Counted from the stretch's first letter, positions 32,919 to 40,451 are shown. The stretch is DNA of 64,000 nucleotides from Frateuria sp. (GCF_035943815.1 NZ_DASZBU010000018.1:23353-87352); one strand, 5' to 3'. Program-made: numbers and translations. The notes: generated from the letters alone by a model not told the origin.

Positions 32919-33128
32919 TTAGAGCGGCTGCACCTGGTCGGCCTGCAGGCCCTTCGGGCCCTTGGTCACGATGAAGGACACCTTCTGGCCTTCCTGCAGG
33001 CTCTTGAAGCCGGAGGCGGTGATCGCACGGAAGTGGACGAACACGTCATCGCCGCTGGCGCGGCTGATGAAGCCGAAGCCCTTGGCATCGTTGAACCACT
33101 TGACGGTACCGGTTTCGGTCTGGGACAT
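32919..33128 (-). CDS. cspA: Cold-shock protein CspA family
   Basis: 69 aa. [15 protein letters not shown] (RNP1) and DVFVHF (RNP2). GGAGA SD. Confidence 0.95.
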
Positions 33129-33412
33129 CGTTGTATCTCCTTGGAACGGGTGAAGGCCGCGTGGCGCGGCAGGAGCTGGTCGCAAGGAGGAAACGGGTAC
33201 AACGGTGTAGTGGAACTGCGTTCTACAGCATCGGGCCACAGTTCGGTGACCCCTGAAACTCAGCGCGGCCACATTAATGGCTGTCGCGCCGCGAAGCAAA
33301 TGTTTTCGAGCGCCAGCATTCAGCCTGGTGCGGTTTCAGCCTCGGGACGAGCTGCCGGCAGCCATGCCGAGGGGCGCCGAAGCGCCCCCCGTTTCGCACT
33401 GCATTGGAAGGG

Positions 33413-33616
33413 TCAGTCGTTCTTGTGGCTCTGCTCACCGGCTTTCACATGCTGCTCGTGGCTGCCCCCTTGGCTGCCGCGGTTGCCGGAAGAGCTTCCG
33501 CCGGCCGACTTCGACTTGTCGTCGTTCTTGTGGCTCTGCTCGCCTGCCTTGACGTGCTGCTCGTGAGAGCCGCCACGCTCGTGCGAGCCGCCACGGTTGT
33601 CGTTGCTATTGGGCAT
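33413..33616 (-). CDS. Small stress-type protein with internal duplication GGSHEQHVKAGEQSHKND (KGG-repeat-like)
   Basis: 67 aa and Gly/Ser/His/Lys-rich. The 18-aa unit occurs twice and is also visible as a DNA direct repeat. GGAGA SD. Confidence 0.6.
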   Translation of the reverse strand: MPNSNDNRGGSHERGGSHEQHVKAGEQSHKNDDKSKSAGGSSSGNRGSQGGSHEQHVKAGEQSHKND

Positions 33617-33784: not shown

Positions 33785-34666
33785 CTATTCGCCGCGCACC
33801 GGACTGCCAACGCCTTCGCTACGGCGGTCGCGCTTGGCTTCGTACATCGCTCGGTCCGCGCGTGCCAGGAGCGTGTCCGGGTCGCTCCCGCCGTCCGGGA
33901 AGCAGGCGATGCCTATGCTGGCATCGAGATGGAACGTGCCCTCCGGCAGGTCGAACGGCAGCCTGAGGCAGGCGCGCAGACCTTCGGCCACGGTGCCGGC
34001 GGCCTGCACGTCGCCGCAGCCGGGAAGCAGGGCGACGAACTCATCGCCGCCGATGCGGGCCATCAGGTCGTCCTGGCGCAGGCCCTTGTGCAGGCGCCGC
34101 CCGGCTTCGCGCAACAGGCGGTCGCCCACGTCGTGTCCGTATCGGTCGTTGATGCGCTTGAACCCGTCCAGGTCCAGGTAGAGCACGGCCAGGCCGTTCT
34201 CCGTCCGGGATGCGTGCTCGAGGGCGTACTGCAGTTCGTGCTGCAGCCGGTGGCGGTTGGGCAGCCCGGTGAGCGGATCGTGGGTGGCGCGGTGCTCGAG
34301 TTCGCGCTCGGCGCGGCGCAGCTCGGTCACCTCGTGCGCCACGCCGAGGCGCACGCCGTATTCGGGCAGCCAGCGGGCCGACCACTGGATGTCCACACTG
34401 TGGCCATCCTTGTGGATGTAGCGATTGCGGAAGTTGAGCTGCGGCACCCCGTTCATGACCTTTTCGGCCTGTTGCATGGTCGTCGCGCGGTCGTCGGGGT
34501 GGACTAGCCGGAAGATCGGCTGCCCGATCACCTCCACGGGCGCGTAGCCCAGGATGCGTCCGAAACCCGCGCTGACGAAGAGCACCTGACCCTGGGCGTC
34601 GACGACGCAGACCGCGTCGGGCATCAGGTCCAGCAACTCGGCGGGCGTGGGGAGCTTTGGGATCAT
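33785..34666 (-). CDS. PAS-GGDEF diguanylate cyclase
   Basis: PAS segment LMPDAVCVVDAQGQVLFVSAGF...; GGDEF motif in RIGGDEFVALL. The start is the ATG at 34666; an alternative in-frame TTG at 34786 lies 12 nt past the upstream gene's stop. Confidence 0.85.
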   Translation of the reverse strand: MIPKLPTPAELLDLMPDAVCVVDAQGQVLFVSAGFGRILGYAPVEVIGQPIFRLVHPDDRATTMQQAEKVMNGVPQLNFRNRYIHKDGHSVDIQWSARWLPEYGVRLGVAHEVTELRRAERELEHRATHDPLTGLPNRHRLQHELQYALEHASRTENGLAVLYLDLDGFKRINDRYGHDVGDRLLREAGRRLHKGLRQDDLMARIGGDEFVALLPGCGDVQAAGTVAEGLRACLRLPFDLPEGTFHLDASIGIACFPDGGSDPDTLLARADRAMYEAKRDRRSEGVGSPVRGE

Positions 34667-34798
34667 GAAGGTCAGGGTTCGCGTTTGCAGGCGCAAGGCT
34701 ATCGGTCCCAAGCCAAGCAAGAAAGAGGCCAGCAACTGGCGAGGAACGACGACCCAACGTTGACGCGCATGTGGCCCGCTGCGCAAGGCTCATCCACG

Positions 34799-36472
34799 CT
34801 ACATCGGCCCGCGCTCGACCTGGCGCTCGCGCTGCATCAGCGTCCATTCGGCGTGTTCGGTCAGCGCCGCGTGGCCGAGCGCGCGCAGGATGGCGCGCTG
34901 TTCCGCGGAATTGGCCGCACGGTCCAACGCGGTGCGCGCGGCACCGAAGATGCGTTCCATGAAGCGATACTGCTTGAGCAGCACCTTGTCCGCCTTGCGG
35001 TAGGCATAGGCCTCGCGCACCGCGGCGATGATGGAGAGGATGCCCATCAGCGCCACCAGCGAGCCCTTGATCTGCTCGTCCAGGCGCAGCGCGAAGATCG
35101 CCAGCAGCACGCTGATCGAGACGCCGCCCCACAGGCTCAGCGCGCCCAGGGCTTCGGTGACGCGGTGCAGGCCGGCGCACTCGATGCTCTTGCGCTCGTA
35201 GTAATGCAGCTGGCCGGACCGGCCGGAGCGGCCCACCCATTCGTCGATGACGCAGGCCAGCGCCGCCGCATCGGCCGCGGGCGCGTGGCTGGGAGGCAGG
35301 CCGGCCGCGCGCATGACGTTGCGGATCCAGCCCAGTTCCACGTTCTGCTTCTGCAGGAAATCGTCGTGTGCGAAGGCGTAGTCCCGCGTCAGCGAGATGC
35401 CGGCCCGGCGCCAGTAGGACTGGATGCGCAGGCCTTCGGCCAATGCGCGGTAGTCCAGGTACTTGCGGTGCCAGCCGCGCCGGTTGGCCACGGCGGCGAC
35501 CGCCATGCCCAGCGCGAACAGCACCAGGAACAGATAGATCAGGCCGTTCTGCGCGCGGAAGTGCGCGTAGCAGGTGAAGGCGGCGCCCATCAGCGCCGCC
35601 AGGGTGTAGATGGTGCGCATCGACAACAGCACGCGGCGCTGGTAGTGCACCGCCAGCCAGTCGGCCTCGCGGAAGGTGCGGTCGATGCCCATGTCGGCGG
35701 CGGCATCGCCGGCAGGTGCGGGCGCCGTTCCGATCGCGGCCGCGTGCGCCTTGCAGTCGGCGTTGAACTCGGCCATGTGCTCGAACATCAGCCGGAACAG
35801 CGCCGGCATGGCCGGTTCGGGCGCGTCGGCCGCCGCATGGCACCAGTGCGCCGTCACCGGCGGGCGCTGGCCTTCCGGCACGTCGGCGCGGGCGCAGCGG
35901 ATGTGGAACAGCAGCCGCTCGTCGCCCGCGCCGAGGATGTGGCGCGGGTCGCGCTCCTGGCCAGGCGGCCCGGGCAGGGTGCCGGTAAGGTGGTAGCGCA
36001 CGATCTGCGCGGTGCCGCCGATCCGGTCGGAGGGCTGCTCGTCCCAGATCGCCAGCAGGATGTGGCAATGGCTGGCGATGTACACCCCGGCCTGTGCGTA
36101 CTGCCGGTCGCGCGCGTCGCCGGGGTTGCTGATCTCGTGGCGCGTGTGGCCCTGCCGGGTCGGCAGCACGATCGTCTCGGCCCGCGCGCACAGCGCCTCG
36201 AAGGCCTCGCGCGAGGCGGCACCGGCGAAGTCCTCCTCGTACAGCGCGGGCGGCAGCGGAAGCGGCGCGATGAGCCGCGCGCCGACCCGCAGCCCCTCCT
36301 CGGCGACCAGGCGGTCACCGCCTTCGGCCAGTGCGGAGAGCACGACCAGCGGCAGGCCCGGGAAGGCCTGCTGCAGTTCACCAAGGAACGTGCGCACGCG
36401 CAGGCGGATGGTCTCCGTGTCCCCGGGTGGCAGGTCGCGATGGCTGGTCACGCCGATCACCAGAGGCGTCAT
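34799..36472 (-). CDS. SLOG-like Rossmann domain fused to two 2-TM (SLATT-like) modules; putative signal-gated membrane effector
   Basis: 557 aa; the ATG at 36472 has GGGAG upstream. N-terminal beta-alpha pattern: VIGVTSHRDL, VVLSALAEGGDRLVAEE, ARLIAPLPLP, ILLAIWDEQPSDRIGGTAQIV. Then TM pairs TIYTLAALMGAAFTCYAHF/LIYLFLVLFALGMAVAAVA and ALSLWGGVSISVLLAIFAL/LVALMGILSIIAAV. Each pair is followed by a basic amphipathic segment (WHRKYLDYRALAEGLRIQSYW; YRKADKVLLKQYRFMERIF). The domain names are inferred. Confidence 0.6.
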   Translation of the reverse strand: MTPLVIGVTSHRDLPPGDTETIRLRVRTFLGELQQAFPGLPLVVLSALAEGGDRLVAEEGLRVGARLIAPLPLPPALYEEDFAGAASREAFEALCARAETIVLPTRQGHTRHEISNPGDARDRQYAQAGVYIASHCHILLAIWDEQPSDRIGGTAQIVRYHLTGTLPGPPGQERDPRHILGAGDERLLFHIRCARADVPEGQRPPVTAHWCHAAADAPEPAMPALFRLMFEHMAEFNADCKAHAAAIGTAPAPAGDAAADMGIDRTFREADWLAVHYQRRVLLSMRTIYTLAALMGAAFTCYAHFRAQNGLIYLFLVLFALGMAVAAVANRRGWHRKYLDYRALAEGLRIQSYWRRAGISLTRDYAFAHDDFLQKQNVELGWIRNVMRAAGLPPSHAPAADAAALACVIDEWVGRSGRSGQLHYYERKSIECAGLHRVTEALGALSLWGGVSISVLLAIFALRLDEQIKGSLVALMGILSIIAAVREAYAYRKADKVLLKQYRFMERIFGAARTALDRAANSAEQRAILRALGHAALTEHAEWTLMQRERQVERGPM

Positions 36473-36522
36473 GGAAGCTCCCGGCTCCAGGATGCGCCGC
36501 GCTGGCCGGCGCGTGCCCGCGG

Positions 36523-36550
36523 CCCCGCGCCGCTTGCCGGCGGCGCGGGG
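36523..36550 (-). promoter_or_regulatory. 10-bp GC stem-loop immediately downstream of small ORF B
   Basis: ccccgcgccg / cggcgcgggg with an 8-nt loop and no U-tract. It sits between small ORF B and the SLOG-like gene. Confidence 0.6.
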
Positions 36551-36574
36551 CGAGGGTGCTCAGTTGTTCTTGAT
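36550..36574 (-). repeat. Direct repeat copy B (3' end of small ORF B plus 9 nt past its stop)
   Basis: gcgagggtgctcagttgttcttgat is 24/25 identical to 36789..36813. On the minus strand it encodes ...IKNN*, followed by CACCCTCGC. Confidence 0.85.
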
Positions 36575-36706
36575 CGATGGGTGGGTGGTGGTGTCGGGCG
36601 TCAGCGTGCCGGAGAACTGGGGTTCGGCAAGCGGGGCCTGCTCGTCGGATGGCGAGTCGGGGGTGAGCTCCGGCGTGGGAGCCTGGGGTTCGCGTGGCTG
36701 GGACAT
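36560..36706 (-). CDS. Small ORF B, 48 aa, acidic/Pro-rich, C-terminal tail ...TTTHPSIKNN
   Basis: The ATG at 36706 has GGAGG 5 nt upstream. It shares its C-terminal tail and 3' flank with small ORF A. I recognise no homology. Confidence 0.5.
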   Translation of the reverse strand: MSQPREPQAPTPELTPDSPSDEQAPLAEPQFSGTLTPDTTTHPSIKNN

Positions 36707-36760
36707 GATTGCCTCCGCTGGGCGGGCGGCCGGGGACGGCCGCGGCTTGCGTGTACGTCG

Positions 36761-36777
36761 CGGGCCGTTACGGCCCG
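36761..36777 (-). promoter_or_regulatory. 7-bp stem-loop cgggccg-tta-cggcccg immediately downstream of small ORF A
   Basis: Perfect inverted repeat read directly, with no U-tract. Confidence 0.55.
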
Positions 36778-36788
36778 GTGACGCGGGC

Positions 36789-36813
36789 GCGAGGGTGGTC
36801 AGTTGTTCTTGAT
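36789..36813 (-). repeat. Direct repeat copy A (3' end of small ORF A plus 9 nt past its stop)
   Basis: gcgagggtggtcagttgttcttgat is 24/25 identical to 36550..36574. Confidence 0.85.
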
Positions 36814-37167
36814 GGAGGGGTTGGTGTTGGTGCCGGTGGTGTCGAGCGTGGAGTAGGTCTGGCCATCGAGCGCCACGCTCAGGCGGTAGACCCAGTCGCC
36901 GCTGCTGGCCGCATTTTTGTTGAGGTCGGTCATCTGCATGCTTTTGCCGTTGGACGACGGTTCGGCCGGCCCGAAGATGCCGTCGGGTGGCGTGTCCACC
37001 CAGGCGAGCGGCTGCAATTGCCCGTTGGCGGCATCGCCCTCCAGCTGCCACACGATCGTCTGCGGCTGCGCGCTGCGGTCGATGTGGTTGGCATTGCCGT
37101 TCTGGTCGATGTCGACCGTCCAGGGCTGGGTCGATTTGTCCAGGGTGACGCGAAGCAGGTGCTCCAT
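36799..37167 (-). CDS. Small ORF A, 122 aa, probable beta-rich domain, C-terminal tail ...TNTNPSIKNN
   Basis: The ATG at 37167 has a strong SD (AAGGAGAA 5 nt upstream) and lies 40 nt after the TIR gene stop. No signal peptide and no family that I can name with confidence. Confidence 0.65.
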   Translation of the reverse strand: MEHLLRVTLDKSTQPWTVDIDQNGNANHIDRSAQPQTIVWQLEGDAANGQLQPLAWVDTPPDGIFGPAEPSSNGKSMQMTDLNKNAASSGDWVYRLSVALDGQTYSTLDTTGTNTNPSIKNN

Positions 37168-37207
37168 GGCGTTCTCCTTTGCTGGCGGGGGGAAATCGCG
37201 GTGTTCT

Positions 37208-39361
37208 TCAGCGCACATCGGCCAAGGCTGCGCCGTCGAGCGCGTCGCGCAGGCGTTGTGCGAAGGCCGGGTTGGGCGGGAAGGGGATGCGGGCCTGGCG
37301 CAGCTCCTGCATGAGCGCCGCGTCGCGGTAGCCGGACGCCCAGAGCTGGCGCGCGAGCGGCTGCGCCTCGGCGGTCCGGTCCAGCGCGAGCAGCGCGTCC
37401 ACGCGCAGCGCGAGCAGGCGTACGTCGGCCGCGCCGCCGCGCACGCCGGCCAGGCGTTGCAGCGCCTTCTCGCGCAGTCGGCGGGCGCCGGCCGCGTCCT
37501 GCAGCTCGGCCAGTTGCAGGTCGGCGCGGGCGCTGGCGAGCAGCAGCGTGCGTTCTTCCGGCTGCCTGGCGAGCTGCGCCGCGAGCACGCGTGACGCAGC
37601 GCGTGCGTCGATCAGCGCCGCGCCCCGCGCGCCGCCGGCGAGCAGCACGGCGGCCCGTTCGGTCTGCGCCTGTGCCAGGTCCTGCTGCCAGTCGGTGTTG
37701 TCGGGATCGTGACGCGCGAGGGTCTGCAGCGTCGCGACTGCGCGCGCCAGCAGGCTGGCGGCGGTGCGGGAATCGCCCTGCATTCGCCGCAGCCGTCCGA
37801 GTTGGGTGGCGTAGAGGCCCACCTTGTCCTGGAAGTTCGCCTGCGCCGGGTCGAACCGGTGCAGATTCTCCGCGGTGGACAAGGCCTGGCTCAGCGCATC
37901 GGCGGCCCGCCCGTCCTCGCCGGCCAGCAGCAACGTACGGCCGAGGATGCCGCGCACCCGGGCCATGTTCTCGCGCTGGTCGTTGTCGTTCGGCCGGGCA
38001 TTGGCCAGCCGCGTTTCGATCGCATCGTCGGCGGCGTATTCCGTGATCGCCTGGAGCAGCTGCCCCTGCACGAGCGCGAGCTTGCCGAGGTTGTTGTGCG
38101 CCTCGCCCAGGTGTTCCAGCCACTCGCGCCTGGGCGAGGGCTGCAGGGCGAGCCGGCGGCAGCGCTCGAGCATGCGACGGTAGTGCGCGCCGGCCTCGTC
38201 CAGCCGGCCGCGCGCTTCGAACACGTGGCCGATGTCGTTGTCCAGCGTGCTCAGTTCGAACAGCACCTGCGGGTCGCCGCCCGCCTCCGCGCCCATGCGC
38301 TCGAGCGTGGACTGCGCGCCACCGAAGGCCCGCGCCGCCTCGTCCAGGTCGCCGCGGTACCAATCGGCCATGCCGATGAACGCCTGCACGCGTGCGTAGG
38401 CGATCTGCCGCTCGCGGTCGGACGGCGCCGCCTCGGCCAGCCGGCGCGCGAGCGGGGCGGCCGCCCCGAAAGCGCTTGCCGCCGGCGCGAGCTGGCCCTG
38501 GTCCATGCGCACGCTGCCGATCTTTTCCAGCGCCTTGACGCGCTGCTCGAGCGCCTCGTCGGTGACGTCGGTCGCCGGCAGCGAGTGGAAGTAGGCCATC
38601 GCCTTGTCGTCGACCGCTTCCATGATGTCCAGCCGCTGCACCTGCGCGAGCTTGTCGTTGAGGTCGCCGAGCATGAAGCCGACCAGATCCTCGGCCTGCT
38701 TCTGGCGGCGCTCGGCGGCGTGGCGGGCGAGCACGGCCTCGATCGCCAGCAGGCTGGTCACCAGCATCACCGCCGTGGCCAGCGCAGCTATCGCGGTCAG
38801 CCGGCGGTTGCGCCGCTGCAGCTCGCGCCGGCGCAGCTGATCCAGTTCCAGATCCAGCAGCCCGGCGATCAGCTTGAGCCTTGCGCTGGGTTTGCCGTCC
38901 TTGCCCGGGCGCACGTCGGCGGCGAGGGGTTCGGCGCCGCCCTGGCGCAACGCGGGCGGCAGGCATTCCTCCGGCGCGCCGGCATTCGGTTCGCCGGCGA
39001 CGATCAGGCAGAAGATGCGATCGCCCCGGCCCAGGCGCTGGAACGTCTCCAGTTCCTGCTCGACCCAGTGCGAGGCCGCCGCGGCCGGTGAGCAGATCAC
39101 GATGAGGTTGGCGGACTGGCGTAGCGCTTGCGCGACCTTGTCGCCCAGATCGGGCGAGCTGGCCAGTTCATCGCGGTCGCGGAAGATCGGCGCGAGGCGG
39201 CGGGTCACCGTGCCGGCGCGGGTTTCCTTGCCCACCAGCCGCGTGGGTACGCGGTAGGTTTCCAGGCCACGGTGCAGCCACTCCGCCCACGCCTTGTCGT
39301 GGTGGCTGTAGCTGATGAAGGCGCGGTACCGGTACGCCTGTGCGTGGAATGCCTGGTCCAT
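37208..39361 (-). CDS. TIR domain - single TM - TPR-like repeat protein
   Basis: 717 aa. TIR motifs are YRAFISYSHHDKAWAEWLHRGLE, FRDRDEL and NLIVICSPAAAASHWVEQELETF (conserved Glu present). A basic stretch RRRELQRRNRR precedes the TM LTAIAALATAVMLVTSLLAIEAV. About 480 aa of helical repeats follow (ALEKIGSVRMDQGQL, GMADWYRGDLDEAARAF, GHVFEARGRLDEAGAHY, LGKLALVQGQLLQAITEY). Confidence 0.85.
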   Translation of the reverse strand: MDQAFHAQAYRYRAFISYSHHDKAWAEWLHRGLETYRVPTRLVGKETRAGTVTRRLAPIFRDRDELASSPDLGDKVAQALRQSANLIVICSPAAAASHWVEQELETFQRLGRGDRIFCLIVAGEPNAGAPEECLPPALRQGGAEPLAADVRPGKDGKPSARLKLIAGLLDLELDQLRRRELQRRNRRLTAIAALATAVMLVTSLLAIEAVLARHAAERRQKQAEDLVGFMLGDLNDKLAQVQRLDIMEAVDDKAMAYFHSLPATDVTDEALEQRVKALEKIGSVRMDQGQLAPAASAFGAAAPLARRLAEAAPSDRERQIAYARVQAFIGMADWYRGDLDEAARAFGGAQSTLERMGAEAGGDPQVLFELSTLDNDIGHVFEARGRLDEAGAHYRRMLERCRRLALQPSPRREWLEHLGEAHNNLGKLALVQGQLLQAITEYAADDAIETRLANARPNDNDQRENMARVRGILGRTLLLAGEDGRAADALSQALSTAENLHRFDPAQANFQDKVGLYATQLGRLRRMQGDSRTAASLLARAVATLQTLARHDPDNTDWQQDLAQAQTERAAVLLAGGARGAALIDARAASRVLAAQLARQPEERTLLLASARADLQLAELQDAAGARRLREKALQRLAGVRGGAADVRLLALRVDALLALDRTAEAQPLARQLWASGYRDAALMQELRQARIPFPPNPAFAQRLRDALDGAALADVR

Positions 39362-39548
39362 GACGCCGACCCCGATGCGGTCGCTGGCGGCTGAGCGAAC
39401 CTAGCACCGCGGGCGTGACGGTCCGCTCACGGGCACCGTTGCCTTCGCCCACCGCCCGCCGCGGCTACCTGCCTGCGTGGCGCCCGTATTCCGCCGTCCG
39501 CCTGCCAGGGGCTTTGGCCATGCTTGCCGCTTCGCCACGGAGTCCGCC

Positions 39549-40451
39549 ATGTCCTTACGCGTCCTGCCCGCCCTCGCAGTGGCCTTCGGCCTGATCCTCG
39601 CGCCTGCAGTGACGCGCGCAGCCCAGCCCTCGGGCAAGCCGCCCCAGGCCATCTACGGCCAGCAATGGAATGCGCCGCAGAAGCCTTTCCGCATCTACGG
39701 CAACACCTGGTACGTGGGCCCGCATGGCCTCTCGGCGTTGATCGTCGATACGGGCCACGGGCTGGCCTTGTTCGACGGCGACCTGCCCGCATCCGCGGCG
39801 CTGATCGAGGCGAACATCCGCACGCTCGGGTTCCGCGTGCGCGACGTCAAATGGATCCTCAACTCGCACGCCCACGCCGACCATGCCGGCGGCATCGCCG
39901 CGTTGCAGCGGGACAGCGGGGCGCAGGTGCTGGCCAGTGCGCAGGGCGCGCCCGCGCTGGAGCTCGGCGGAGCCGACCCGAGCGACCCGCAGTACAGCCT
40001 GGCGCTGACGTATCCCGCCGTCGAACATGTGAGGCCCGTGCGCGACGGCGAAACCCTGCAACTGGGCGACGTGGCGATCACCGCGCACTACACGCCCGGC
40101 CACACCCCCGGGAGCACGTCGTGGACCTGGGACTCGTGCAGCGAAGGCCACTGCCTGCACATGGTCTACGCGGACAGCCTCACCGCGCTCGGATCCTCCG
40201 TATTCCGCTACAGCGACCACCCGCAGCAGATGAACACATTCCGCCGGTCGATCGCCATCGTGGCCGCACTCCCTTGCGACATCCTGCTGACGCCACACCC
40301 CGACGCCAGCGGCTTCTGGCAGAAAGTGGCGCGGCGCAAGTCCGACACCGACAGCGCGCCGCTGGTCGATGCGGGCGCGTGCCGCGCCTACGCCGCGACC
40401 GCCACCGAAAAGCTCGATGCGACGCTGGCAGGAGAGCGGGCGAAGAAGTAG
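39549..40451 (+). CDS. Subclass B3-like metallo-beta-lactamase
   Basis: ORF trimmed to the ATG at 39549 (GGAG upstream) and has a signal peptide. Motifs are FRIYGNTWYVG, ILNSHAHADHAGG (HxHxDH) and HYTPGHTPGSTSW, and it has L1/B3-like length. Confidence 0.8.
   Translation: MSLRVLPALAVAFGLILAPAVTRAAQPSGKPPQAIYGQQWNAPQKPFRIYGNTWYVGPHGLSALIVDTGHGLALFDGDLPASAALIEANIRTLGFRVRDVKWILNSHAHADHAGGIAALQRDSGAQVLASAQGAPALELGGADPSDPQYSLALTYPAVEHVRPVRDGETLQLGDVAITAHYTPGHTPGSTSWTWDSCSEGHCLHMVYADSLTALGSSVFRYSDHPQQMNTFRRSIAIVAALPCDILLTPHPDASGFWQKVARRKSDTDSAPLVDAGACRAYAATATEKLDATLAGERAKK

Follow-up and report, generated by a model that had tools for sequence, protein, structure and literature searches.

A Thoeris-like gene cassette of the Rhodanobacteraceae with a receptor-like layout and small proteins sharing a C-terminal tail

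The pairing of a TIR protein with a membrane effector is already described, in type VII Thoeris and in a putative Thoeris type annotated as 'SLOG and 4TM'. In type VII, the TIR protein ThsB is accompanied by the effector ThsH, a SLATT protein with ligand pockets between the SLATT protomers, and the signal is canonical cADPR. Each 'SLOG and 4TM' example was collected as an operon of two genes (Tables S1/S2 in Yirmiya et al., bioRxiv 10.64898/2025.12.03.692087), with only the TIR domain sequences given in the supplement; the two tested systems, from Streptomyces and Nitrospira, provided no defence in E. coli. Among the other types, type I combines ThsB with ThsA (SIR2-SLOG), type III several TIRs with a DprA-type SLOG effector, and type II ThsB with a TM-Macro effector, the signal being His-ADPR. 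SLATT was predicted by Burroughs, Aravind and colleagues to be a membrane-permeability effector regulated by nucleotides or ADPR derivatives and encoded beside TIR genes. Their SLOG-SLATT fusions and TIR-SLATT neighbourhoods are computational predictions, and the searched literature of these authors mentions no TIR-TM-TPR partner and no small proteins with such tails.

The cassette described here, from a Frateuria-group soil bacterium, resembles a relative of Thoeris anti-phage signalling with a receptor-like layout. It lies within a stretch of 64,000 nucleotides (the window), in which an earlier note had reported four co-directional minus-strand genes; the ORF check recovered all four as claimed, with intergenic gaps of 40 (G1/G2), 92 (G2/G3), and 87 nt (G3/G4). 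The features are, in window coordinates:

37208..39361, minus strand: G1, 717 aa; TIR, single TM helix, and helical/TPR domain (ORF, Pfam matches)
38942..39328, minus strand: TIR domain of G1, approximately residues 12-140 (Pfam TIR_2 at 15-122; flax L6 TIR alignment)
39053..39055, minus strand: codon of E103 of G1, the second Glu of WVEQE (L6 alignment, conservation)
38729..38803, minus strand: predicted TM helix of G1, approximately residues 187-211 (Kyte-Doolittle scan)
37211..38728, minus strand: C-terminal helical/TPR domain of G1, residues 212-717 (TPR matches, conservation profile)
36799..37167, minus strand: G2, 122 aa; beta-rich small protein ending in NPSIKNN, without a signal peptide (ORF and Shine-Dalgarno site)
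36802..36822, minus strand: tail of G2, N116-P-S-I-K-N-N122, invariant in the alignment of close homologues
36560..36706, minus strand: G3, 48 aa; acidic, Pro/Thr-rich, ending in HPSIKNN (ORF and GGAGG Shine-Dalgarno site)
36563..36583, minus strand: tail of G3, H42-P-S-I-K-N-N48, the shared motif
34799..36472, minus strand: G4, 557 aa; SLOG-like domain and two SLATT-like 2-TM modules (ORF, AF2 model)
35828..36472, minus strand: N-terminal alpha/beta domain of G4, residues 1-215, SLOG-superfamily, YAcAr/DprA-like (Foldseek, Pfam)
35393..35689, minus strand: first 2-TM hairpin of G4 with basic amphipathic helix, residues 262-360, SLATT_3/DUF4231-like
34913..35221, minus strand: second 2-TM hairpin of G4 with basic helix, residues 418-520, SLATT_1-like

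The Shine-Dalgarno sites of G2 (AAAGGAGAA) and G3 (GGAGG) are clear. The claim that each gene has its own site is only partly right, because that of G4 (GGGAG) is moderate and that of G1 weak. A start of G2 at an upstream ATG (37218), giving 139 aa, is disfavoured, as its homologues have 122-125 aa.

Compared by annotation, the 'SLOG and 4TM' type is similar in that a TIR gene adjoins a gene for an effector with a SLOG domain and four TM helices, such as G4. Here, however, the TIR domain is fused to a TM helix and a TPR/helical domain of ~500 aa, tail-bearing small genes are present, and BLAST found no similarity between the published 'SLOG and 4TM' TIR domain sequences and G1. With type VII the cassette shares a TIR signal generator and a SLATT-type membrane effector, with membrane disruption as the predicted outcome, whereas its TIR is membrane-anchored and accompanied by the small tail proteins, and G4 differs from ThsH by an additional SLOG-like sensor domain (~215 aa) and by two different SLATT modules in tandem. 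In types I and III, too, a SLOG-superfamily domain is presumed to receive the ADPR derivative made by the TIR, but no SIR2 was found in the present cassette, its output consists of membrane helices instead of an NADase, and the profiles that match its SLOG-like domain are those of YAcAr and the DprA family, not STALD. The likeness to type II lies in a membrane-spanning effector that would be activated by the TIR product; no Macro domain was found, however, and G4 has a SLOG-like sensor, its four TM helices forming two SLATT-like modules.

More than 3000 homologues of G1 were found, the best 120 being full-length with 53-94% identity. Its TIR domain matches Pfam TIR_2 over the cut-off (8.6e-14, residues 15-122) and also ThsB_TIR (1.3e-7). 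As SKWCLMEL of the flax L6 TIR aligns with SHWVEQEL of G1, the catalytic-type Glu proposed in the earlier note corresponds to E103, which is conserved in at least 98% of 121 G1 homologues. The TM helix and the TPR-like repeats are also borne out: the Kyte-Doolittle scan shows one hydrophobic span (187-216, peak 2.23), and TPR_12 (6.8e-7), TPR_1, and TPR_2 match residues 371-442 only, each under its curated cut-off. The TPR region gives weak matches to O-GlcNAc transferase and a bacterial kinesin-light-chain-like protein, and the best-conserved stretch of the C-terminal domain is juxtamembrane (212-300 in the conservation profile). The TM helix is flanked by six Lys/Arg residues on its N-terminal and three on its C-terminal side; in the predicted topology, the TIR domain is cytoplasmic and the TPR/helical domain periplasmic. 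By analogy only, this arrangement recalls animal Toll-like receptors, in which one TM helix links a repeat ectodomain to a cytoplasmic TIR. The order is nevertheless inverted in G1 (the TIR is N-terminal), the ectodomain consists of TPR instead of LRR repeats, and the TIR is expected to be an enzyme and not an adaptor; no homology is claimed outside the TIR domain. The ligand of Drosophila Toll is an endogenous protein, Spaetzle.

G4 belongs to a large family (1497 clusters at 50% identity, E<1e-30, most of them full-length). In its AlphaFold (AF2) model (pLDDT 79.6, pTM 0.80), an alpha/beta region (1-215) is followed by long helices. The top PDB matches of the N-terminal domain in Foldseek are DprA (3uqz, 5mll, 3maj), ShosA (8zva), and the TM1055 protein (1rcu), with probabilities of 0.93-1.0 and no E-value below 1e-3, while a sequence search of G4 against PDB gave no match. 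Among 26 N-terminal-only members of the family, Pfam YAcAr matches 14 and the DprA family 5; the family invariants of the domain are H11, G51, D53, and W143. The evidence for the SLOG assignment, as the earlier note had it, is weak but consistent. Both of the proposed SLATT-like modules are recognizable in profiles, though under the curated cut-offs, and in the model. The first hairpin (helices 263-304, 309-332, and 334-356; invariant R342, E346, and R349) matches NCBIfam SLATT_3 (1.1e-6, residues 266-349) and, in Pfam, DUF4231 (6.8e-5) and SLATT_3 (1.8e-3). The second (helices 420-460, 466-493, and 496-518; TM segments 441-465 and 467-490) matches NCBIfam SLATT_1 (5.5e-10, residues 421-493). 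SLATT_1, SLATT_3, or DUF4231 also match 15-22 of 60 diverse G4 relatives.

The small ORFs are the part of the cassette that the earlier note underrated. PSIKNN is the common C-terminus of G2 and G3, and the tail is unchanged in all sixteen close homologues of G2. It is real and far above the chance level: in 1.2 Mb of related loci, the exact terminus P-x-[IVL]-K-N-x occurs in 79 of 21,531 ORFs, all of them at most 1.5 kb from G1 or G4. The tail is found again at 84 loci on small ORFs that are otherwise unrelated, with one to four such genes per cassette, and a tail-bearing small protein is present at nearly all G1-containing loci; at many of them the lone small ORF is a G3-like acidic peptide with the tail. 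It tracks the G1-type ectodomain, occurring only where the TIR partner has a TPR ectodomain of this type and being absent from four G4-only loci. The number and class of the small proteins differ strongly even among near relatives. Some tail proteins carry Sec signal peptides; G2 and G3 of the window have none and would therefore be separated by the membrane from the TPR receptor that is proposed.

The AF2 model of G2 is a beta-sandwich of moderate confidence (pLDDT 66). G2 matches nothing in Pfam and NCBIfam, and a broader profile of its family found nothing in PDB. The best fold match of the model, SO1698/DUF1888 from Shewanella oneidensis (PDB ID: 3n55 and mutants), is a self-cleaving beta-sandwich protein; the match is weak (probability 1.0, TM ~0.5, 20-23% identity, rmsd ~10.7 A), and SO1698 also heads the sequence-profile matches of the alignment of close G2 homologues (E 0.04). 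Each is a beta-sandwich of ~120 aa in which an X-Pro bond precedes a short C-terminal segment (D116-P117 in SO1698, from the mutant names in PDB titles, and N116-P117 in G2). Because relatives have various residues before the Pro (N, D, S, T, G, H), self-cleavage is only a lead. The annotation of the Frateuria MAG includes G3, which is of low complexity and probably disordered, as a gene.

A pathway leading from a TIR signal via a SLOG sensor to a membrane effector, the logic put forward earlier, is well supported by association because of the G1-G4 linkage and the TIR neighbours of distant homologues. Of the informative Rhodanobacteraceae genome loci, 67 of 71 have G1 and G4 side by side, even though order and orientation vary and flanks differ by genus. 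Distant G4 homologues (~30-45% identity to the P0340 query) are flanked by TIR genes as well, with architectures other than that of G1: such neighbours occur at 12 of 18 well-flanked metagenome loci, and five different architectures are represented among the TIR_2 proteins. We lean towards the cassette being a Thoeris-like second-messenger pathway with a membrane receptor at its centre, for which we infer topology, signalling direction, signal chemistry, pore formation, tail binding partners, and biological trigger. G1 would reside in the inner membrane, with the TIR facing the cytoplasm and the TPR/helical domain the periplasm. A change in the ectodomain, probably via the conserved tail of G2, G3, and their relatives, would activate the TIR, which would convert NAD+ to an ADP-ribose-derived signal. 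After its binding by the SLOG-superfamily domain of G4, the SLATT-like hairpins might open or oligomerise, making the inner membrane permeable or depolarising it. Cells would then stop growing or die, most plausibly by abortive infection. A function in anti-phage defence is plausible yet unproven, and the lack of protection from the two tested 'SLOG and 4TM' systems in E. coli weighs against this reading. The earlier claim of an undescribed composition does not extend to the TIR and membrane effector pairing, but the receptor-like layout and the tail proteins are absent from the searched literature. A Toll-like topology such as that predicted for G1 appears to have no description there, and the variable small proteins with a C-terminal P-x-I-K-N-x tail, found solely beside G1-type TPR ectodomains, as well as the conservation throughout the Rhodanobacteraceae lineage in surroundings that hold neither defence nor mobile genes, also appear undescribed.

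The same biochemistry (TIR signal, SLOG sensor, 4-TM channel) could alternatively serve housekeeping or stress signalling instead of phage defence, which seems rather unlikely. The periplasmic TPR domain would then report on the condition of the envelope or on the tail proteins as a peptide cue made by the cell itself, with G4 as a regulated channel and no suicide pore. In favour of such a role, the cassette occurs in 449 species-level genomes, of which the best 80 are all Rhodanobacteraceae-type lineages, and all named genera belong to this family. Identity follows taxonomy (75-96% in Frateuria, 59-65% in Rhodanobacter, Dyella, and Luteibacter, and 53-58% in deeper lineages), and genus-level groups have flanking genes in common. 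The cassette looks vertically inherited across the entire family, a conservation atypical of patchy defence systems. Its neighbours within +/-10 kb, read in a near-identical Frateuria MAG locus, are ordinary metabolic and regulatory genes (metallo-beta-lactamase, GST, cold-shock protein, RIO1-like kinase, M13 peptidase, and PAS-GGDEF directly after the cassette); no defence or mobile genes were found in this range, contrary to a defence island, and PADLOC models gave no system-level match. Of the Thoeris-like immune operon envisaged before, the domain calls (TIR with a catalytic-type Glu, TM helix, TPR, SLOG-like, and twin SLATT-like modules) and the inferred signalling logic stand; a defence-island setting is not supported. 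Sec export also gives some tail proteins a resemblance to autocrine ligands. On the other hand, distant G4 homologues have neighbours of the kind typical of conflict systems (SIR2-TIR, patatin, and giant WD40 proteins), the characterised bacterial TIR and effector operons in the searched literature are all defence systems, and the variability of the small proteins resembles that of diversifying conflict components.

It is improbable that the TIR of G1 acts as a toxic, NAD+-depleting output (cf. CBASS, Pycsar, and pAgo), with G4 as an independent or upstream membrane component whose SLOG-like domain possibly makes or destroys nucleotides. Unverified putative types may use the TIR as an NAD+-depleting effector (Yirmiya et al., 10.64898/2025.12.03.692087), enzymes exist among SLOG clades (e.g., the LOG clade), and the invariant polar H11 and D53 of G4 could be catalytic. 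However, the sensor-like part (TM helix and repeats) is located on G1, and the ligand-binding-type domain with an effector-type membrane module on G4, which fits a signal flow from G1 to G4; moreover, SLATT is described as an effector in CBASS and type VII Thoeris. That the four genes form no single functional unit, with fortuitous adjacency and tail or unexpressed small ORFs, is hardly credible: the small size and low complexity of G3 would agree with it, but the linkage of G1 and G4 withstands changes of orientation and flanks, none of the exact-tail ORFs lies away from the cassette, and the Shine-Dalgarno sites of G2 and G3 are strong.

The cassette comprises four minus-strand genes, and their positions and the gaps between them (40, 92, and 87 nt) are as the earlier note had claimed:

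37208..39361, minus strand, G1, TIR-TM-TPR protein of 717 aa
36799..37167, minus strand, G2, small tail-sharing protein of 122 aa
36560..36706, minus strand, G3, small tail-sharing protein of 48 aa
34799..36472, minus strand, G4, protein of 557 aa with a predicted SLOG-like domain and two SLATT-like 2-TM modules

The further claim of a separate Shine-Dalgarno sequence for each gene stands for G2 and G3, where it is strong (AAAGGAGAA and GGAGG, respectively), and to a moderate degree for G4, but the sequence preceding G1 is weak. A promoter and terminator scan found neither a sigma-70-like promoter nor a convincing terminator between the four genes, which is compatible with a single operon. The G+C content of the cassette (~0.70-0.72) is like that of the remainder of the window. 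The closest public locus, from a Frateuria sp. MAG, has the same neighbours and shares 96% identity in G4 and 92% in G1; both small ORFs are annotated there as genes.

G1 carries the TIR domain with a catalytic-type Glu, the single TM helix, and the TPR-like repeats that had been read from the sequence. Pfam TIR_2 matches residues 15-122 at 8.6e-14, over its cut-off, and ThsB_TIR matches at 1.3e-7. In a phmmer alignment with the TIR domain of flax L6, SHWVEQEL stands opposite SKWCLMEL, which points to E103, the second Glu of WVEQE, as the catalytic-type residue; it is kept in at least 98% of 121 full-length G1 homologues. The only hydrophobic segment (residues 187-216) is flanked by six Arg/Lys residues on its N-terminal side versus three on its C-terminal side. 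This bias would place the TIR domain in the cytoplasm and the ~500-residue helical/TPR domain in the periplasm. TPR models of Pfam match residues 371-442 of this predicted ectodomain (residues 212-717), while the best-conserved part of the protein outside the TIR domain lies just past the membrane (residues 212-300).

The AlphaFold2 model of G4, built from 63 homologues (pLDDT 79.6, pTM 0.80), consists of an alpha/beta domain (residues 1-215) and two helical hairpins, each followed by a conserved basic helix (HRKYLDYRALAEGLR and KQYRFMERIF). DprA structures from three species lead the Foldseek matches in the PDB, and ShosA and 1rcu (TM1055) are among the other high-probability matches; the probabilities are 0.93-1.0, and the E-values are only 0.02-0.3 because the query was the full-length model. 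In a profile scan of the N-terminal domains alone from 26 diverse relatives, YAcAr, a SLOG family, was matched by 14 and the DprA family by five, and no rival family recurred. Profile searches against PDB sequences with close, diverse, and N-terminal-only alignments gave nothing informative. The SLOG-like Rossmann domain proposed for the N-terminus can be retained with moderate confidence, as a member of the superfamily that includes DprA, LOG, and YpsA. The pair of 2-TM modules with basic segments is borne out by the modeled hairpins and helices, and by matches to SLATT_3/DUF4231 at residues 266-349 (SLATT_3 1.1e-6) and to SLATT_1 at residues 421-493 (5.5e-10), all under the curated cut-offs; the two regions indicate two different SLATT modules. 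An exhaustive profile search recovered 1497 clusters at E<1e-30, mainly full-length, so the architecture represents a large family. Among 60 diverse members there were 22 matches to DUF4231, 16 to SLATT_1, and 15 to SLATT_3, and His11, Gly51, Asp53, Trp143, Arg342, Glu346, and Arg349 (H11, G51, D53, W143, R342, E346, and R349) are invariant throughout the family. Confidence is moderate to good that G4 as a whole combines a SLOG-superfamily domain with twin SLATT-like modules.

Homologues of G1 and of G4 number in the thousands; in each case the top 120 are full-length proteins from Frateuria, Fulvimonas, Rhodanobacter, Dyella, and Metallibacterium. When each species was represented by a single genome, the scan yielded 449 genomes with a G4 relative, and the best 80 of these, all of Rhodanobacteraceae-type lineages, were analysed. 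G1 lies directly upstream of G4 and co-directional with it in 57 of the 80 loci, divergent from it in nine, and downstream of it in one; in nine more the flanks are too short to place it. The remaining four loci (L015, L041, L077, and L081) have no neighbouring G1, and no TIR gene or tail ORF (see below) occurs within at least 4 kb on each side of their G4 homologue. The co-occurrence of G1 and G4, a check proposed in the earlier note, is therefore found in 67 of 71 informative loci. The genes flanking the cassette are wholly different between genera but common to the members of a genus-level group.

A metagenome scan with distant G4 members (~30-46% identity to the P0340 query) added 80 loci. 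Of these, 34 contain a TIR ORF; among the 18 with flanks of 3 kb or more on each side, 12 do. The TIR partners display five architectures: a standalone TIR_2, a SIR2_2-TIR fusion, a TIR domain preceded by an N-terminal region, a TIR domain followed by a C-terminal region (neither region containing a recognised domain), and TIR-TM-TPR. TIR proteins thus have an old and robust association with the effector family, and this is the main support for a relationship of signal generator and effector. Patatin, K+-channel/RyR, and giant WD40 proteins are also recurrent beside the distant G4 homologues. Patatin-like phospholipases or K+-channel/TrkA/RyR genes occur near them at L147, L125, L133, L114, L093, and L149, and at L091, L092, and L106. 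At L115 (633..6741) and L088 (780..6738), a SIR2_2-TIR fusion of 466 aa and a WD40-repeat protein of ~1550 aa come before the G4 homologue, which gives this effector family another three-gene setting.

The shared tail of the two small proteins, noted earlier, is confirmed: the C-termini read TNPSIKNN in G2 and THPSIKNN in G3, and among 21,531 stop-to-stop ORFs from 84 related loci (1.2 Mb) the motif P-x-[IVL]-K-N-x was found near the end of 82 and at the exact C-terminus of 79, none of them farther than 1.5 kb from G1 or G4. Rhodanobacteraceae loci without the strict motif have variant tails (..PRIKPS, ..GAIKPS, ..DPSIVNH, ..NPTINNK, and ..DPTIQNK), as do distant metagenome relatives (..DPQIKNEN, ..DPRIDNGGGN, and ..NPWVRNN), and K-N and K-P variants coexist within single loci on different small proteins. 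The bodies that bear the tail belong to several unrelated classes: G2-like beta-rich proteins; G3-like acidic disordered peptides, the sole small ORF in many Luteibacter and Pinirhizobacter loci and some Rhodanobacter loci; a His-rich variant in the Dyella japonica group; an Ala-Pro repeat peptide; and proteins with a clear Sec signal peptide and two Cys residues (L037, L044, L045, L083, and L154), with bigger signal-peptide proteins in L151 and L152. Number and class vary fast between loci, up to three or four tail proteins per locus in L053 and L054. In these two Dyella loci, two extra tail ORFs lie upstream of the TIR gene (L053 2650..3411 and L054 2987..3940), another G2-like protein, which has a long linker, and the Ala-Pro repeat peptide (APAPAPAP...NPSIKNN). 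The 88-aa Sec-signal protein of metagenome locus L154 (4312..4578) contains the tail twice, as internal RDPAIINN and C-terminal RDPSIVNN, which suggests a duplication of the tail module.

The tail follows G1, not G4. Tail ORFs accompany TIR partners with a G1-type ectodomain (L119, L137, L144, L151, L152, and L154) and are likewise seen on three short contigs that would end before the TIR gene; none was found with a TIR-TM protein of another ectodomain, a standalone TIR, or a SIR2-TIR, and none in the four genome loci that have G4 only. Since TPR domains are well known for binding C-terminal peptides and some tail proteins are exported, the G1 ectodomain is the most economical candidate for the tail receptor; the absence of a signal peptide from G2 and G3 of the window is a difficulty for such a receptor in the periplasm.

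As stated in the earlier note, G2 and G3 belong to no recognised family: neither they nor ten diverse G2-like proteins matched any Pfam or NCBIfam model, DUF1888 included. G2 is modeled as a beta-sandwich, with moderate quality (pLDDT 66) and an ill-defined tail. The top Foldseek match of the model is the Shewanella oneidensis beta-sandwich protein SO1698, an "aspartic peptidase" of the DUF1888 family (PDB ID: 3n55), together with its point mutants (E 7e-3, probability 1.0), with a TM of about 0.5 but an rmsd of about 10.7 A. A profile built from close G2 homologues and run against all PDB sequences also ranks SO1698 first (E 0.04). The mutants named in the PDB titles (S114A, P115A, D116A, P117A, and Q118A) point to a functional X-Pro site close to the C-terminus. 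SO1698 cleaves itself at D116-P117. In G2 and its close relatives N116-P117 is invariant, whereas in the wider G2 family the Pro is invariant but is preceded by N, D, S, T, G, or H. A broad G2-family profile found no match in the PDB and did not strengthen the link, and both kinship with SO1698 and X-Pro cleavage are put forward as a possible lead, not a finding.

In published summaries of the Thoeris types, phage invasion is sensed by a TIR protein whose product targets an effector inside the infected cell. Two generic features of such systems are a TIR domain with the Glu required for NAD+ chemistry, which G1 has, and a neighbouring effector gene that combines a ligand-sensing domain with a toxic output domain, to which the predicted architecture of G4 corresponds. 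Type I relies on a SIR2 NADase with a STALD-type SLOG and type II on a TM-Macro effector, whereas no SIR2, STALD, or Macro domain is matched by Pfam in any of G1-G4. According to Yirmiya et al. (bioRxiv, December 2025; 10.64898/2025.12.03.692087), in which types V-XI are defined, type VII combines a TIR with a SLATT effector and uses the canonical cADPR signal. The SLATT-like matches on G4, under curated cut-offs, may point to an effector akin to ThsH as published; type VII differs in that it has two genes, ThsB and ThsH, whereas here the 717-aa G1 extends into a TM helix and a TPR/helical domain, G4 possesses a SLOG-like domain and a further SLATT module in addition, and two small genes lie between them. 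Closer in architecture are the "SLOG and 4TM" proteins listed beside TIRs in Table S2 of the same source, from Streptomyces sp. GKU 895 and Candidatus Nitrospira nitrosa, whose published description matches the predicted architecture of G4 beside G1. Both systems were tested in E. coli, with defence given as "No". The table also contains "SLOG Patatin" (No) and "Ion channel" (type X), the same partner types as those found beside distant G4 homologues. The Aravind group had predicted SLATT to be a membrane effector regulated by a nucleotide or ADPR derivative and reported TIR-SLATT neighbourhoods.

BLAST gave no significant match between the two published "SLOG and 4TM" TIR domains and the TIR domains of G1 and related loci, nor any meaningful match of type VII and type III TIR domains to G1 or to the TIRs of those loci, apart from type III TIR4, which matches two metagenome-locus TIRs at about 1e-5. 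The covered portion of the Yirmiya et al. supplements contains no G1-type peptides and no Rhodanobacteraceae genera. The published Thoeris type summaries mention no TIR sensor that spans the membrane and has an extracytoplasmic domain, and an incomplete coverage of the literature yielded no description of the TIR-TM-TPR receptor form, the tail proteins, or the family-wide conservation. The earlier view that the composition is undescribed therefore has to be narrowed: the pairing of TIR with SLOG/SLATT is already catalogued, with validation still missing, while the predicted receptor-like topology and the tail family are, as far as can be told, specific and new.

A chain in which the TIR product is sensed by the SLOG domain and leads to SLATT-type membrane action is, on balance, slightly favoured; a defensive purpose is held with somewhat less assurance than this mechanism. 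The characterised precedents are defensive throughout, the partners of the distant relatives are conflict-type genes, and the small proteins turn over rapidly. All three speak against the main rival, by which the cassette serves physiological signalling instead of defence, and which is considered rather unlikely. It draws on the surroundings and inheritance of the cassette: the checks for a defence island and a PADLOC system suggested in the earlier note came out negative, with neither defence genes nor mobile genes in the 10 kb on each side of the near-identical Frateuria MAG locus, and only weak TIR matches, with no system, from PADLOC models run on all four proteins. The cassette is conserved across Rhodanobacteraceae with identities that follow taxonomy, and its distribution looks vertical; in this lineage neither defence-island enrichment nor patchy spread was found.

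A more elaborate proposal, quite improbable in its entirety, ascribes a Toll-like logic to the cassette. The periplasmic TPR ectodomain of G1 would recognise the P-x-I-K-N-x-COOH end of diversifying self-encoded small proteins, the candidate ligands being Sec-exported two-Cys peptides, beta-sandwich proteins of the cytoplasm, which may cleave themselves at the X-Pro bond, and acidic disordered peptides. The trigger could be the binding of a ligand, or its loss or leakage across a damaged inner membrane; relayed through the single TM helix, it would activate the TIR enzyme in the cytoplasm, and the product of that enzyme would open the SLOG-gated 4-TM effector. If true, this would be the first bacterial TIR signalling triggered by endogenous protein ligands from outside the cytoplasm.

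A TIR enzyme behind a TM helix and a big repeat ectodomain, with accessories linked to that ectodomain by their common tail, would depart from the published Thoeris scheme; it would extend bacterial TIRs to trans-membrane sensing and provide a bacterial counterpart of the animal Toll-like receptor layout. The cassette also constitutes a natural and widely conserved case of the "SLOG and 4TM" effectors, a class that failed heterologously, perhaps for want of its native partners or host. If it is non-defensive, it would be a rare bacterial use of a TIR/NAD-derived second messenger in ordinary physiology.

Several neighbouring genes deserve mention. One group of Rhodanobacter genomes has genes for a PnuC-type nicotinamide mononucleotide transporter and a TonB-dependent receptor just downstream of G4 and convergent with it (e.g., L002 11734..14508, CP088923.1); a PnuC transporter beside a putative NAD-consuming TIR system is notable but may be a coincidence. 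In the window, G4 is followed on the same strand by a PAS-GGDEF gene of the diguanylate cyclase type (33785..34786, minus strand), which starts at most 12 nt past the G4 stop if its TTG start is used; the Frateuria MAG has the same neighbour, with PAS and GGDEF Pfam matches, but other genera do not. Divergent from G1 is a 324-aa ORF with a HAHADH motif (39477..40451, plus strand); its 299-aa MAG counterpart matches Pfam Lactamase_B, of the metallo-beta-lactamase fold. A Gly/Ser/Lys-rich ORF of 67 aa (33413..33616, minus strand), with the internal repeat GGSHEQHVKAGEQSHKND present twice, resembles a small stress-protein-type repeat peptide, and its 61-aa MAG counterpart has no Pfam match. Beyond it lies a cold-shock-domain protein (32919..33130, minus strand), the listed ORF of which is stretched artificially upstream to 33299.
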